A DNA stretch of 64,000 nt from a virus: the UHGV virus genome UHGV-0060833. The stretch is one strand, 5' to 3'. Position 1 is the first letter of the stretch, and each line of letters begins with the position of its first letter. This document shows, in pieces, positions 48,704 to 54,709 of the stretch. The translations under genes were made by a program, and so were the position numbers. The notes under the pieces are model-generated. The model was given only the letters and a program-made list of their open reading frames with translations, did not search any database and was not told the origin of the DNA.

Positions 48704-51700
48704 CTATATTTTTCCGCCTACCCCTTTAAACTTCTCAATAAACGAGACGATTTTCTGGAAAACTGCCTGTTTTTTCGTTTTATATTGCGGATTCAACGGA
48801 CTAAGTTTTGGTAATGTTTCGTTTAATTCTGTGCCATTTTCGGTGGCGTATTCGCGTTTTAAAGACGTGCGAATATAGCGTTTTGCTGCTTCTTCATTGA
48901 GATTTTCTTCTTTTATCAATGCTTCTGCCTCACGTTGCTGTTCGCGTTGAGCAAACGTAAAGAATGCGTCAATGATGCTGGCTTTGTCCGGTAAGTCATC
49001 CAGGTTCGTTTGCTGAATAAAGTCGATCACCAGGCCCTCTTTAGCACGGTTCCCCAGGCTTGAACGAATTAAGCGTTTGACCTCTTCGATCATTTCGCCT
49101 TTGCCTTTATTTTGTCTGTTGTGTTCGAAAATCAGTCCAAGGATATAATCCAGGTTTATTTCCTGAGACTTCAACAAATCGACCTCAAAAACTACGTCAT
49201 CCCAGTCAGTGGTTGATTTATCTTTTTTCTCAGCTTCTTTCTCACGGCGCTGCCAGTCACGAATATCGTTATAGGCAGAACGATAATCCTGAATCTTGCG
49301 TTCAGCAGGGAGACGAATCATTTGCAATTCAGCGAACTTTTCATCATCCACATAATGTTCTGCTTTGAATTTTTCTACCGCAACAGGATCGCTAAGATCG
49401 ATTTGTTGCAGGGCTTTCAGCGTGGCAAATTCATCATAGTTTTGCAGGATGTTCTCGGCACGCAGGTATTCACCAAACAGTTTAACGAAGTCTTTCTTCT
49501 CTTTTTCACTTTCAATACTGGCAGGGTCAGGGAACCGTTGTTCCAGTTCTGAAACTATTGCCATAAAGCCGCGCTTAGCTTCACCAGTGGCAGCATCAGT
49601 AAAGCCTTCCATATACTCTGCATAACTCTTTTCTAACACCACATTTTTGGTATTTTTATCACCAAACAGCGTTATGGCATCAATGGTTGAGCGTTCCAGA
49701 TCCCGGAAAGTGACGATGTTACCGAAGGTTTTAGTAGCGTCATAAATGCGGTTTGTGCGGGAGAATGCCTGCATCAGGCCGTGAAAACGCAAGTTTTTAT
49801 CGACGAATAGCGTGTTCAATGTTGGAGCGTCGAAGCCGGTTAAAAACATCCCAACGACAATTAACAGATCGATATCCTGATTTTTAACCCGTTGGGCTAA
49901 ATCACGATAGTAGTTCTGAAAACCGTTACTGTCGGTGCTGAAGTTAGTTTTAAAATAGCTGTTATACTCACGAATTGCAGCGTCAAGAAACTCTTTAGCA
50001 CTGCTGTCCATTGCGCTGGTATCAAAAGTTTCATCGGAAATTTCACCAATGGCATTTTGTTCTTCATTGGCGGCAAAGGAGAAGATTGTTGCAACACGCA
50101 GCGGTTTATAGGTAGCCGATTTATTAGCTGCTTCCTCTTGTAACCGTTTAAACGTCGCGTAATAGGCTTTCGCGGCATCCACGCTACTCACTGCCAGCAT
50201 GGCATTAAAGCCTTTGGAACCTGGGAAAGTACGGTGGGTCTTCTGGCGGAAGTTATTCAGAATATATTGCGTAATTTCCTGTATACGCATGGGATGAAGA
50301 AACGCCTGCTGATTTTCAGCCGCACTCAGTTTTTTCTCGTCAGTTTCTGTCTCTAAAGACTTAAACTGTGGCCGCACATCGTTGTAGTCCACCTTGAATT
50401 TGAGCACTTTTTCGTCACGAATCGCATCGGTAATTACATACGAATGCAATTCACGACCAAATACGCTGGCGGTTGTTTCTGAGCCTAAGGCGTTTTCCGG
50501 GAAAATAGGGGTGCCGGTAAAACCAAACTGATAATAGCGTTTGAATTTCTTCTTCAGGTTTTTCTGCGCTTCTCCAAACTGGCTGCGGTGGCATTCATCA
50601 AATATAAACACCACTTGCTGATTATATACAGGCAGGTCGCTTTCTGCTTTCATCAGGTTATTGAGTTTCTGAATAGTAGTGACGATAATTTTGTTATCGT
50701 CCTTATCCAGATTTCGTTTAAGGCCTGCGGTATTTTCCGAGCCGTTGACGCTGTCTGGCGAAAAACGCTGATATTCCTTCATGGTCTGGTAATCGAGGTC
50801 TTTCCTGTCGACCACGAAGAAGACTTTATCAATAAAGTCCAGCTCTGTTGCCAGACGCGCGGCTTTAAAGCTGGTCAGGGTTTTACCGGAACCCGTGGTG
50901 TGCCAGATATACCCACCGCTTTCCGGTTTTGACCAGTTCTTCGCTGTAAAGGAGCTCTTAATTTTCCACAGAATGCGCTCGGTGGCAGCAATCTGGTACG
51001 GTCGCATCACCAGTAGCGTCTGACTACTGTCAAAAACGCTGTAGTTCACCAGAACATTCAGCAGAGTATGTTTCTGGAAAAAGGTGGCGGTAAAGTCTTT
51101 GAGGTCTTTAATCAGCGTGTTGTCTGATTTCGCCCAATTCATGGTGAAGTCAAAACTGTTTTTATCGCGCTTTGTGGTGTTGGCAAAGTAACGGGTATCG
51201 GTGCCGTTAGAAATGACAAACAGTTGCAGATACTTAAACAGGGAATTTTCGCTGTTAAAACTCTCTTTGCTGTAACGATGTATCTGGTTGAAGGCCTCAC
51301 GAATCGCTACACCGCGTTTTTTCAATTCAATTTGTACCAGCGGCAGGCCATTGACCAGAATGGTGACATCGTAGCGATTGGCGTGAGAGCCTGCCTGTTC
51401 AAACTGCTGGATAATCTGCACTTTATTGCGCATGAGATTCTTTTTATCTATCAAATAGATGTTCTCAAGACGCCCGTCATCAAAAATAAAGTCGCAAATA
51501 TAATCGATATGGATTTTACGGGTCTTATCCAGAATACCATCACTCGGGTTGTCCAGATACTGCTCCGTGAAACGCCGCCACTCGCTGTCATTAAACACCA
51601 CACCATTGAGGTTCTGAAGCTGTTCCCGAACATTGGCCAGCATCGCTGACTGTGATTTTACGGATATAAATTCATAGCCCTGATTTCGCAGGTCCTGAAT

Positions 51701-51820
51701 CAGTTCCCGTTCCAGGTCCGATTCGCTCTGATAGCTGTCGCCTGTTTGCTCAGCTTTGATGTACTTATCAAGAACGATAAAGTTATTGGATTCAGCAATG
51801 GTGTGTGTTTGATGAGTCAT
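48704..51820 (-). CDS. hsdR: Type I restriction enzyme R subunit (EcoR124-like, type IC)
   Basis: 1038 aa; helicase motifs including DECHR ([11 protein letters not shown]); separate from hsdMS by a 121-bp gap, consistent with its own promoter. Confidence 0.9.
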
Positions 51821-51941: not shown

Positions 51942-53150
51942 TTAATTACTGACAGTTTCAGATTTTGGGAAACTGAACAGTAAATCACGATAGTACTCGT
52001 ATTGTTTCTGGCGCAACTCGATTTCACGCGGGAGACCTTCGGTGATGGAGTTGGTCAGGGTGTCGAATTTATCGAGCAGAGCAGATATTCGCTCTTGTTT
52101 CTGTTTATCAGGCAATGGCACTGGTAATGTTTTTATAATATCTGCATTCAAGTTACTGACCGACCCGCTATTGATTTTACTTTCCCAATAATTTTTCACC
52201 TTTTTTGATGAAAGATAGTGATACAGATAATCAGTGTTTAATTTTTCACCAAAATTGCTGATTGATGCCCATCCATCATGGATAGCTCCGGTTATCCTTA
52301 AAATATATGGTCTGCCAAAGCTCATAGAGTTAGAAATGACGAAATCACCAGGGTTCAAGATTCGCGATTTTTGGGCACCCTCTGCAGTTATTTTTTGTAA
52401 GGTTTTGTCAATGTATTTAGAGCCGGGGATAGTATCTCCGATTTTAATCCATGGGATACCATTTCCTTGTTCAGTAAGATAATTAACAATTGGCCTGGGG
52501 GATGCCCCACGTTGGATTTTGGCTACTTCTCCCAAAGTCTTCCACTCAACCTCACCCTCTTTAAAACTCAACAACTGGTCGCGATAATAGTTGTACTGTT
52601 TTTTACGCATGTTAAGCTCAGCGGTAAGCTCAGCGGTAAGCTCAGCGGTAAGTGCAGTAAATTTATCCAGAATCCGAACGATTTCAGACTGGATGGCAAG
52701 GGACTTTTCCGGGTTGTCCGGGCTAGGAATGGGAACTTTAAATCCTTCCAGCATGGGTTTTCTTATCGAAATGGCGGTAGCACCCACACTTTTTGTCAAG
52801 ATGTACTGCTTAAAGCTAGATGACATGAAGTAATACAAAAACTTCGTGTCTACGGCATTAGTTGTGATACGAATTCTATACGCCCTTTGATGTAGAGCAT
52901 ATTTTCCCTCAACATAGTGAAATATGTCGCCAATTCCACCTTCACCAGGAATGACTATTGCTACCTCATCAAATTCAAAGGTATCTGACTTCAAGATATT
53001 CTTTGAGCGAACATAGAATGGATAAATTCCATTTTCGCTTTCATCCTGACGATTTGAACTTCCAGTACCGATATCTGCCATAGAACCCAATGTTACCCAC
53101 TCAACCTCAACCCCATCCAACAGTTTTTCCAGATAGCTCAGCTCGCTCAT
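51942..53150 (-). CDS. hsdS: Type I restriction-modification specificity subunit
   Basis: 402 aa; two target-recognition domains separated by a central TAEL x3 repeat; 4-nt overlap with hsdM. Confidence 0.85.
52615..52650. repeat. Three tandem 12-bp repeats (agctcagcggta) encoding TAEL x3 in HsdS, plus one degenerate copy
   Basis: Read directly; encodes [17 protein letters not shown]. Confidence 0.9.
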
Positions 53151-54709
53151 TTCTGCACCTCGCAGCCTTCAATTTCAGCCACAATCGCATCAATATCTTT
53201 GCGCAATTGGTCGATTTTGCTGACGGTGGTTTTCAGTTCGGCATTCAGTTCAGTGATATCTACAACTTCGCGGGTATCTTTGGCTTCCACATAGCTGCTT
53301 ACCGACAGGTTATAGTCATTCGCGACAACAGTCTCAAACGCAACAGATTTCGCCAGATGAGCAACATCTTCCTTGCTGGCAAATACCTGCATAATTTTTT
53401 CTATATGGGCATCGGTCAGGATATTGTTGTTAGTCTCTTTTTTGAACAGTTCGCTGGCGTCAATAAACTGAACGTTGGTATCCGTTTTATGTTTAGACAG
53501 AACCAGAATGTTTACGGCAATGGTGGTGCCAAAGAACAGGTTCGGTGCCAGTGAAATCACGGTTTCGACATAGTTATTGTCGACCAGATACTGACGGATT
53601 TTCTGCTCCGCGCCGCCACGGTAAAAAATGCCCGGGAAGCAGACAATCGCAGCACGACCTTTGGCAGAAAGATAGTTCAGCGCATGTAATACAAACGCAA
53701 AGTCAGCTTTGGATTTGGGGGCCAGAACGCCAGCCGGGGCAAAACGTTCATCGTTAATCAGCGTCGGGTCATCGCTGCCAATCCATTTCACCGAATACGG
53801 CGGGTTAGAAACGATGGCATCAAACGGTTTTTCATCTCTGAAGTGCGGCTCAGTCAGCGTATTGCCCAGCTTGATATCAAACTTGTCGTAGTTGATGTTG
53901 TGCAAAAACATGTTCATACGCGCCAGGTTATAGGTCGTATGGTTGATTTCCTGACCAAAAAAACCTTCTTCGATGATATGGTTATCAAACTGTTTTTTCG
54001 CCTGCAACAACAGCGAACCGGAACCTGCTGCCGGGTCGTAGATTTTGTTAACGTGGGCCTGGCCGTGCATTGCCAGTTGTGCAATCAGCTTAGAGACGTG
54101 CTGCGGTGTAAAGAACTCGCCGCCTGACTTACCGGCATTCGCGGCATAGTTAGAAATCAGGAACTCATAGGCATCGCCGAACAGGTCAATCTGATGTTCG
54201 TTAAAGTCGCCAAGCTTTAACCCTTCAACCCCTTTCAGAACCGCGGCCAGGCGGGCATTTTTATCCTTAACGGTGTTACCCAGGCGGTTACTGGTGGTAT
54301 CGAAATCAGCAAACAAACCTTTGATGTCAGCTTCTGAAGGGTAACCGTAAGCAGAACTTTCGATAGCAACGAAGATGCTGTTTAAATCCGCATTCAGTCT
54401 GTCATTGGTATTTGCTTTCGCAGCTACGTTGCAGAAAAGCTGACTGGGGTAGATGAAGTAGCCTTTAGTTTTGATGGCATCGTCTTTAATGTCATCAGTA
54501 ATTACGCTGTCATCCAGTTTCGCATAACAGATACTGTCATCACCGGCTTCCATATGGCTGGAAAAATTTTCGCTGATAAAACGGTAGAAAAGTGCGCCCA
54601 GAACGTATTGCTTAAAATCCCATCCATCGACCGAACCCCTGACATCGTTAGCAATTTGCCAGATTTGACGATGAAGCTCTGCACGTTGTTGAATACTTGT
54701 CATTTTCAT
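53147..54709 (-). CDS. hsdM: Type I N6-adenine DNA methyltransferase M subunit
   Basis: 520 aa; NPPY motif ([11 protein letters not shown]). Confidence 0.9.

Follow-up and report, generated by a model that had tools for sequence, protein, structure and literature searches.

A predicted EcoR124-like type IC restriction-modification cassette in place of the pmgT-humD block of a P1-like plasmid prophage

Gene layout and integrity of the hsd locus

Which restriction-modification (R-M) system lies next to phd-doc in the virus genome UHGV-0060833, and how does its position relate to the gene order of phage P1? We analysed a stretch of 64,000 nt of this genome (the window). Judged from its sequence, the segment 48629–54809 is very probably a complete, apparently functional type IC R-M cassette, a piece of dispensable cargo in a P1-like plasmid prophage. 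The locus is made up as follows:

48629–48703, minus strand: cassette-specific 75 bp downstream of hsdR, with the inverted repeat CTTGCGGGTT/AACCCGCAAG (junction alignment)
48704–51820, minus strand: hsdR, restriction/translocase/endonuclease subunit (1038-aa ORF)
51821–51941, minus strand: hsdS-hsdR intergenic region of 121 bp, presumed site of a separate hsdR promoter
51942–53150, minus strand: hsdS, specificity subunit (402-aa ORF)
53147–54709, minus strand: hsdM, N6-adenine DNA methyltransferase subunit (520-aa ORF)
54710–54809, minus strand: cassette-specific 100 bp upstream of hsdM, presumed hsdMS promoter region (junction alignment)
54880–55487, plus strand: phd-doc toxin–antitoxin pair, the conserved right-hand neighbour (ORFs, P1 annotation and homology)

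A sequence-only reading of this DNA had described hsdM and hsdS as coupled by a 4-nt overlap (53147–53150), followed after a 121-bp gap by an hsdR gene for 1038 amino acids; the ORF list returns identical coordinates and values. Re-translation of all three ORFs, as a check for frameshifts and premature stops, found no internal stop codon in hsdM, hsdS or hsdR. In the PGAP annotation, the start of hsdM is placed two codons further in, which yields a protein of 518 aa. PADLOC called all three type I components (REase_I, MTase_I and Specificity_I), and the Pfam and NCBIfam profiles likewise find HsdR, HsdM and HsdS encoded together, as in type I systems. Type IC systems have this same arrangement, hsdM and hsdS first and then hsdR as a unit of its own.

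Junctions with P1 DNA

In an alignment with P1, the cassette (48629–54809) stands between pap and phd-doc in place of P1 84483–87969. The cargo swap surmised earlier, on the ground that P1 carries hot/lxr/humD-type genes at this position, is borne out by the P1 record, in which the hsd genes are absent from this site; the replaced block proved larger than supposed, comprising nine genes (pmgT, pmgU, pmgV, hot, lxr, humD and upfM/N/O). What had been taken for an “accessory block” ahead of the cassette is in fact the P1 backbone segment ppp-pmgQ-pmgR-pmgS-pap. At the left junction (48628/48629), P1 homology stops at P1 84482, just before the pmgT ribosome-binding site, and at the right junction (54809/54810), it starts again at P1 87970. 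All eight of the replaced P1 genes tested in a CRISPRi assay were non-essential (PMC10695390); upfM stood outside that assay and is non-essential by a cited earlier study only (PMC10695390).

Both breakpoints are flagged in the P1 GenBank record as homologous to the hsd flanks of EcoDXXI and R124/3. According to the record, P1 84263–84482 has its homologue on the downstream side of the EcoDXXI hsd locus and P1 87969–88647 (phd-doc) on the upstream side, so the EcoDXXI locus has the same breakpoints as the window (P1 84482 and 87970). It also notes 84 bp of P1-like DNA adjoining hsdR in R124/3, which recur in the window. The phd-doc pair, whose exact protein matches in plasmids bear the annotations Phd/YefM and Doc, belongs to the P1-homologous DNA that borders type IC hsd loci, and the window has both halves of that DNA, the pap-proximal segment with operator Op88 at the hsdR side and phd-doc at the hsdM side. 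Such loci, with P1 DNA on either side of type IC hsd genes, were described by Tyndall et al. (1997, Mol Microbiol 23:729; cited as reference 364 in PMC12707154). Unlike at EcoDXXI and the loci of that study, the flanks in the window run on into a complete P1-like genome segment, from 522 onward.

Distribution of the cassette and direction of the swap

Among P1-like plasmids and phages, this cassette and its two junctions recur often. It lies between pap and phd-doc in pR15_MCR-1 (MK256965), pMCR_SCKP-LL83 (MF510496) and pSvP1, as well as in the isolated phages vB_EcoM-673R5 and phi456, which share the layout. NZ_AP027786.1 and NZ_CP122597.1 carry a sequence 100% identical to that of the window, and pR15_MCR-1, with two mismatches over 7,401 bp, has the HsdS of the window (WP_106108225.1). 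In vB_EcoM-673R5, by contrast, the hsdS target-recognition domains (TRDs) differ, only the central conserved region aligning, and its record shows hsdR and hsdM each broken into separate ORFs. The cassette had already been reported in P1-like and P7-like phage-plasmids (PMC5786510, PMC6906374); the arrangement was in print in 1997, 2018 and 2019. The system had been judged to be of a known type and not novel, and literature, annotated records and identical plasmid sequences agree; as a discovery the cassette matters little, since its type, its place in P1-like elements and its exact sequence are all already known.

Its use is, rather, that it illustrates cleanly a hotspot for defence genes in phage-plasmids of the P1 family. 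The pap-to-hsdR junction occurs in 258 PLSDB plasmids and the P1-type pap-to-pmgT junction in 167; the swap is a published, recurrent allele, commoner in sequenced plasmids than the P1 arrangement. Reference P1 represents the minority allele at this locus, which matters when P1 serves as annotation template for such plasmids. Many of them carry mcr-1 or ESBL genes, and their type IC specificity will be expected to shape which hosts are tolerated and which incoming DNA is accepted. Through homologous recombination in the conserved P1 flanks, P1-like elements and other plasmids could trade alternative cassettes and hsdS alleles.

These counts also raise the question of direction, which may be the reverse of the one implied in the earlier reading. 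The hsd genes, or alternating cassettes, may be the usual or ancestral occupant and the pmgT-humD block of P1 the less common one, the site being an allelic hotspot and not the scene of an insertion. We hold this to be a serious contender, if a little short of even odds. Besides the excess of hsd-type junctions, it would account for two clean junctions at gene boundaries, for further alleles at the site (e.g., in Salmonella plasmids with partial junction matches), and for a terminator-like hairpin in the P1 flank:

48488–48510, minus strand: terminator-like hairpin with its T-run on the minus strand (best site in the scan)

This hairpin (10 pairs, six of them G-C, with the tail TTTTATTTTC) lies about 195 bp downstream of hsdR, inside the P1-homologous flank, within the stretch for which the P1 record notes homology with EcoDXXI downstream DNA. 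It is likely the hsdR terminator; it would act leftward only and has been kept in P1, where there is no adjacent leftward gene. On the other hand, database counts are biased by the sampling of resistance plasmids, and the GC content of the cassette (about 0.41–0.46) is slightly below that of the flanks (about 0.47–0.50), which is compatible with acquisition from elsewhere. Either history leaves the nature of the cassette unchanged. In NZ_CP122597.1, a close relative, a SIR2-family gene pair is found between ref and a 6,768-bp methylase gene, in the interval of the P1 map that we take to be the site of the type III res-mod.

Near-identity of HsdM and HsdR to EcoR124I subunits

HsdM matches TIGR00497 with 646 bits (cutoff 243), as well as PF02384 and PF12161, and aligns over residues 1–520, its full length, with the EcoR124 HsdM chain 7bst_D (1154 bits; eight substitutions counted in the alignment). 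HsdR matches TIGR00348 with 767 bits (cutoff 285), along with PF04313, PF18766 and PF22679, and its C-terminus (residues 728–1031) carries the EcoR124_C domain PF12008 of type IC subunits (241 bits). Over residues 1–1038, it aligns with EcoR124I HsdR 2w00_A (2282 bits; at least 15 substitutions). End to end, the two proteins are about 98.5% identical, by our own mismatch count from the alignments, to EcoR124I chains solved by crystallography and cryo-EM, a match far beyond chance.

The catalytic motifs of type I enzymes (AdoMet motif I, NPPY motif IV, PD-(D/E)xK, Walker A and DEAD-box) are all present. HsdM has DPAAGSG at 225 and NPPY at 302; HsdR has the nuclease motif D151-X13-E165-X-K167 with QxxxY at 179 and the motor motifs GSGKT (310), DECHR (408), TGTP (435) and QAFSR (684). 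The NPPY and DECHR motifs named in the earlier reading were therefore both located, and none of the substitutions relative to EcoR124I falls inside the motifs checked.

The archetypes of type IC, EcoR124I and EcoR124II (from plasmids R124 and R124/3), have the same gene order, with hsdM and hsdS overlapping and hsdR separate, and subunits of the same length for HsdM (520 aa) and HsdR (1038 aa), HsdS being 404 aa long as against 402 in the window. The HsdS conserved regions and a TAEL repeat are likewise common to both. The EcoR124 genes reside on a conjugative plasmid, whereas those of the window belong to a P1-like prophage plasmid and have long stretches of P1 DNA on both sides. Type IC is formally defined by the interchangeability of subunits with family members in complementation (PMC12707154, section 22). 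With sequence as a proxy for complementation, the cassette would fall into the type IC family (EcoR124I, EcoDXXI, EcoPrrI); the EcoR124-like reading is upheld by the near-identity of HsdR and HsdM, the gene order, the conserved regions of HsdS and the TAEL repeats.

Type I enzymes place m6A on both strands of a bipartite, asymmetric target. By analogy with EcoR124I, an M2S1 complex would recognise two half-sites, dictated by the two TRDs, and methylate a single adenine in either of them. HsdR would join it via a cleavage-incompetent R1 intermediate to form R2M2S1, which would bind unmethylated targets, translocate DNA with ATP hydrolysis and cut at a distance, and incoming phage and plasmid DNA would be restricted in the lysogen.

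Transcription signals and restriction proficiency

The hsdMS genes probably have one promoter and hsdR another. The hsdS-hsdR gap contains one weak predicted sigma-70-like match (TTAACA-18-TATTTT, 51914–51885, minus strand), and a weak −35/−10 candidate is predicted upstream of hsdM (CTGCTA-17-TAGAAT, 54770–54742, minus strand). Both are weak matches to the consensus, and the scan returned fewer promoter-like sites than shuffled sequences did. On the far side of hsdR, the C1-controlled PpmgT promoters annotated in P1, with operator Op88, have their equivalent at about 48440–48483 and point into the hsdR 3′ end. A conserved hydrophobic mini-ORF of 28 aa (48539–48624) lies between these promoters and hsdR; no plus-strand terminator was found between the promoters and the hsdR 3′ end.

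Could accumulated HsdR substitutions, or a lack of hsdR expression, have left the cassette deficient in restriction, with no role beyond methylation or an addiction-like stabilisation of its carrier? The substitutions in HsdR, the weakness of the promoter-like match in the 121-bp gap and the convergent PpmgT promoters would fit such a role, but HsdR is full-length with every checked nuclease and motor motif intact, and several independent plasmids have retained an identical protein (WP_106108224.1). An intact hsdR is, moreover, kept at this site in hundreds of plasmids, which argues for purifying selection, and we regard a non-restricting cassette as improbable.

One further conjecture we rate as a long shot. 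The C1 repressor could couple restriction to lysogeny, with convergent antisense transcription from PpmgT damping hsdR upon induction, and, separately, hsdS alleles with two and three repeats may represent ongoing specificity switching. If so, hsdR would be damped while the induced phage replicates unmodified DNA, and sibling phage-plasmids would come to restrict each other through repeat switching.

HsdS differs from EcoR124 in both recognition domains

HsdS matches PF01420 in two stretches. It consists of an N-terminal conserved region, TRD1 (residues ~19–138), a central conserved region with three TAEL copies, TRD2 (~209–357) and a C-terminal conserved region. Compared with EcoR124 HsdS (chain 7bst_A), identity is 91–96% in the conserved regions, against 13.5% in TRD1 and 21.9% in TRD2. 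The 91–96% identical regions are those that contact HsdM. As both TRDs are unlike those of EcoR124, the recognition sequence is expected to differ, the enzyme being a type IC enzyme of other specificity whose target would not be GAA(N6/7)RTCG. That the cassette is EcoR124I or EcoR124II itself, with that very target, is scarcely credible: the HsdR and HsdM identities, three TAEL repeats as in EcoR124II and automated annotations naming the R subunit “EcoR124II R protein” (PMC5786510) would agree with it, but an isoschizomer would have the same TRDs, and the dissimilarity of both specificity-setting domains to 7bst_A refutes it on sequence. The hsdS gene is 100% identical to one annotated WP_106108225.1; a literature search found no papers mentioning the HsdS accessions.

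The TAEL copies are encoded by a perfect tandem repeat:

52613–52652, minus strand: 12-bp tandem repeat encoding (TAEL)x3 in the hsdS central conserved region (TRF: period 12, 3.3 copies, 100% matches)

Tandem TAEL copies are characteristic of the type IC HsdS central region, and this repeat, by analogy, would be the determinant of spacer length. EcoDXXI, too, has four extra residues there, as does the window HsdS, and four extra HsdS residues go with an adenine spacing longer by one bp (PMC12707154, Table 1). A sibling allele (P0001/WP_094316228.1, 398 aa) has one repeat unit fewer and is otherwise identical. Plasmid pTA13-2 has two TAEL repeats in hsdS and HsdR and HsdM accessions identical to those of the window; along 7,401 bp, a single SNP and the 12-bp unit distinguish it from the window. 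The pair of two- and three-TAEL alleles thus appears to be a spacer switch of the EcoR124I/II type. Because of the EcoR124I to EcoR124II precedent, the 402-aa HsdS should recognise the half-sites of its 398-aa sibling, set apart by one more base. The rule that each TAEL adds a base comes from EcoR124 and EcoDXXI (PMC12707154), and the natural pair offers a ready-made test of the spacer rule on a TRD combination outside those two systems.

TRD2 is common to the HsdS proteins of three relatives (P0016, P0034 and P0041) and TRD1 to that of a fourth (P0018), a pattern that, at the sequence level, points to TRD shuffling among relatives.

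A Type I Restriction-Modification Cassette in a P1-Like Plasmid Prophage

The window is collinear with P1 from 522 to 58498, at 95.5-98.4% identity, interrupted by four gaps with lengths between about 130 and 6,200 bp (8458-8586, 11075-12450, 23255-25628 and the hsd cassette), and is a P1-like plasmid prophage. The genes of the cassette and a small open reading frame (ORF) beside it are:

53147-54709, minus strand, hsdM, ORF of 520 aa
51942-53150, minus strand, hsdS, ORF of 402 aa
48704-51820, minus strand, hsdR, ORF of 1038 aa
48539-48624, plus strand, small ORF with GGAG in front, 28-aa hydrophobic peptide MNTAFKIIMATIYFWLFSITFGGIVAHG

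An ORF listing returned the three hsd genes exactly where a sequence-only reading had placed them, with the 4-nt hsdM/hsdS overlap and the 121-bp gap ahead of hsdR that it had described; upon re-translation, no internal stops were found in hsdM, hsdS or hsdR. The motifs it had named occur at HsdM 302 (NPPY) and HsdR 408 (DECHR). HsdM further contains the AdoMet motif DPAAGSG at 225, and HsdR a Walker A motif (GSGKT) at 310 and the nuclease triad D151/E165/K167, plus QxxxY at 179. Pfam, NCBIfam and PADLOC all describe a canonical type I system, with scores far over their cutoffs, and the EcoR124_C domain was matched in HsdR. The cassette is real, intact and ordinary, and the earlier interpretation of the operon is supported overall.

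At the left junction, P1 homology ends at window 48628 (P1 84482), immediately past the small conserved ORF and immediately ahead of the pmgT ribosome-binding site; at the right junction, it picks up at window 54810 (P1 87970), the humD stop codon. Between these points, a cassette of 6,181 bp therefore takes the place of 3,487 bp in P1, with the nine genes pmgT, pmgU, pmgV, upfM, upfN, upfO, hot, lxr and humD. The aligned P1 reference carries this block, not hsd genes, at the position. The proposed swap of cargo for hot/lxr/humD-type genes thus stands, its list of displaced genes extended by the pmg and upf genes; the "accessory block" said to lie upstream is, by contrast, made up of the P1 backbone genes ppp, pmgQ, pmgR, pmgS and pap. 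Eight of the nine replaced genes are non-essential in a CRISPRi map of P1 (PMC10695390); upfM, which was outside that test, is non-essential according to an earlier study listed there.

The phage records vB_EcoM-673R5 and phi456, both P1-like genomes, show the same replacement. In vB_EcoM-673R5 (ON470615.2; 4291-10242), the same hsdR and hsdM are annotated in fragments, hsdR as HsdR1 and HsdR2 and hsdM as two pieces, which suggests frameshifts, by either sequencing error or genuine decay.

The C1-controlled PpmgT/Op88 promoters are located a short way upstream of the 28-aa ORF, which ends at the left junction of the cassette. This ORF is conserved in P1, the record of which has no CDS from pap to pmgT; PGAP annotates a 44-aa version in sibling plasmids (WP_284702762.1).

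Relation to EcoR124

HsdR aligns over residues 1-1038 with EcoR124I HsdR (2w00_A; 2282 bits), with at least 15 substitutions in the part of the alignment printed, and HsdM matches the M subunit of EcoR124 (7bst_D) across 1-520 at 1154 bits and differs by 8 substitutions; by this count of mismatches, each is about 98.5% identical to its EcoR124 counterpart. Comparison with the EcoR124 S subunit reveals the modular make-up of HsdS: identity is 94% in the N-terminal, 91% in the central and 96% in the C-terminal conserved region, as opposed to 13.5% and 21.9% in the target-recognition domains TRD1 and TRD2. The near-identical HsdR and HsdM and the conserved regions of HsdS (91-96%) bear out the EcoR124-like assignment, and by sequence, the cassette belongs to the type IC family. 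EcoR124I or EcoR124II itself was rejected because of the low identity in both TRDs; judging from these domains, the recognition sequence must differ from those of both enzymes.

Among the HsdS homologues from the protein search, the TRD2 of the window is also paired with other TRD1s (P0016, P0034 and P0041), and its TRD1 with another TRD2 (P0018), module shuffling that is usual for the family. The source names of these homologues are generic, the exact 402-aa HsdS is absent from a collection of 15 billion proteins, and a literature search by HsdS accessions found no paper mentioning them.

Repeat Number in the Central Region of HsdS

The central region of HsdS contains three TAEL units, for which a perfect 12-bp repeat of 3.3 copies at 52613-52652 codes. 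In the type IC family, four extra residues here correspond to one more bp between the methylated adenines, the distance being 7 bp for EcoR124I and 8 bp for EcoR124II, EcoDXXI and EcoPrrI (PMC12707154, Table 1). Exactly these two TRDs are most widespread in the 398-aa homologue P0001, found on 140 contigs, which has two units. Plasmid pTA13-2 combines this two-unit form with HsdR and HsdM identical to those of the window, from which it differs over 7,401 bp by one SNP and the 12-bp unit; the three-unit form is carried by pR15_MCR-1, NZ_AP027786.1 and NZ_CP122597.1. This pair of forms represents a recent natural change in repeat number of the EcoR124I/II kind.

The three-unit state was encountered in none of the 120 best HsdS homologues, but its apparent rarity was rejected as sampling bias: with a dedicated 54-nt query and a strict E-value, a type IC central region was matched in 1,149 E. 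coli records, 452 of them with three units, and in 748 plasmids, 354 of them with three units. The 54-nt query was used instead of a 100-nt one, which merged two and three repeats as BLAST joins overlapping pieces.

Prior Record and Frequency

The P1 GenBank record notes homology of 84263-84482 to the downstream flank of the EcoDXXI hsd locus, of 84399-84482 to R124/3, and of 87969-88647 to the upstream flank of EcoDXXI hsd; these limits are the same breakpoints as those of the window cassette. Type IC hsd loci flanked by P1 DNA were the subject of earlier work by Tyndall et al. (1997), as cited in PMC12707154. A table in PMC5786510 gives the same layout for pMCR_SCKP-LL83, and PMC6906374 describes the type I system of pSvP1 as "substituting pmg genes" and refers to pR15_MCR-1. 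NZ_CP122597.1 differs from the window by 72 mismatches across 17 kb; NZ_AP027786.1 has an IS within pacA. The cassette is already known in family, location and exact sequence, as anticipated when it was called a known type and not novel.

In PLSDB, 258 plasmids have the complete pap-to-hsdR junction versus 167 with the P1-type pap-to-pmgT arrangement, and type IC hsdS-like DNA is present in 1,273 of 5,426 complete E. coli genomes. In many conjugative or mobilizable plasmids, the match to the left-junction query starts only at position 117; these carry hsdR with just the last 84 bp of the P1-like flank (window 48545-48628). This is the same short flank that the P1 record notes for R124/3, and suggests that the cassette has also been mobilised in a second, shorter form.

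Proposed Function and Transcription

By analogy with the family, an M2S1 complex would methylate a bipartite target, and the HsdR-bound complex would translocate and then cut unmodified DNA, which could protect the lysogen; the cassette adjoins phd-doc, a putative stabiliser of the plasmid. The conserved flanks may provide homology for swapping cassettes and hsdS alleles. As in the family, hsdMS is probably transcribed separately from hsdR; promoter scans gave only weak matches, below the number in shuffled sequence. The C1-controlled PpmgT promoters are retained and face hsdR. An Rfam scan of 47800-55600 found no known RNAs.

For hsdR, the best terminator-like element is at 48510-48488 on the minus strand, within the flank common to P1. 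This strong hairpin with its T-run exists on the minus strand only. Reference P1 keeps this flank yet has no adjacent leftward gene there, and the hairpin in P1 may be a trace of an hsd-bearing arrangement.

Other Differences from P1 and Relatives

At 11075-12450, the sim (superimmunity) region of P1 (46629-48141) is replaced by two minus-strand ORFs, one of 179 aa, charged and coiled-coil-like, the other of 173 aa, glycine-rich with a lipobox-like LSGC; both look secreted or lipoprotein-like by their N-termini. The partition region at 23255-25628 (parS-parB-parA, P1 58944-61483) gave no megablast match to P1, and contains ORFs of 321 and 403 aa.

Past the right end of the window, NZ_CP122597.1, a close relative of this element, carries at 7529-9531 a gene of the SIR2 family (434 aa) and a hypothetical gene of 213 aa, flanked by ref and a 6,768-bp N-6 DNA methylase gene, which is presumably darB-like. 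The site between ref and the methylase gene is presumably the position of the type III res-mod genes on the P1 map, which could leave the type IC cassette as the only restriction system of the NZ_CP122597.1 element.
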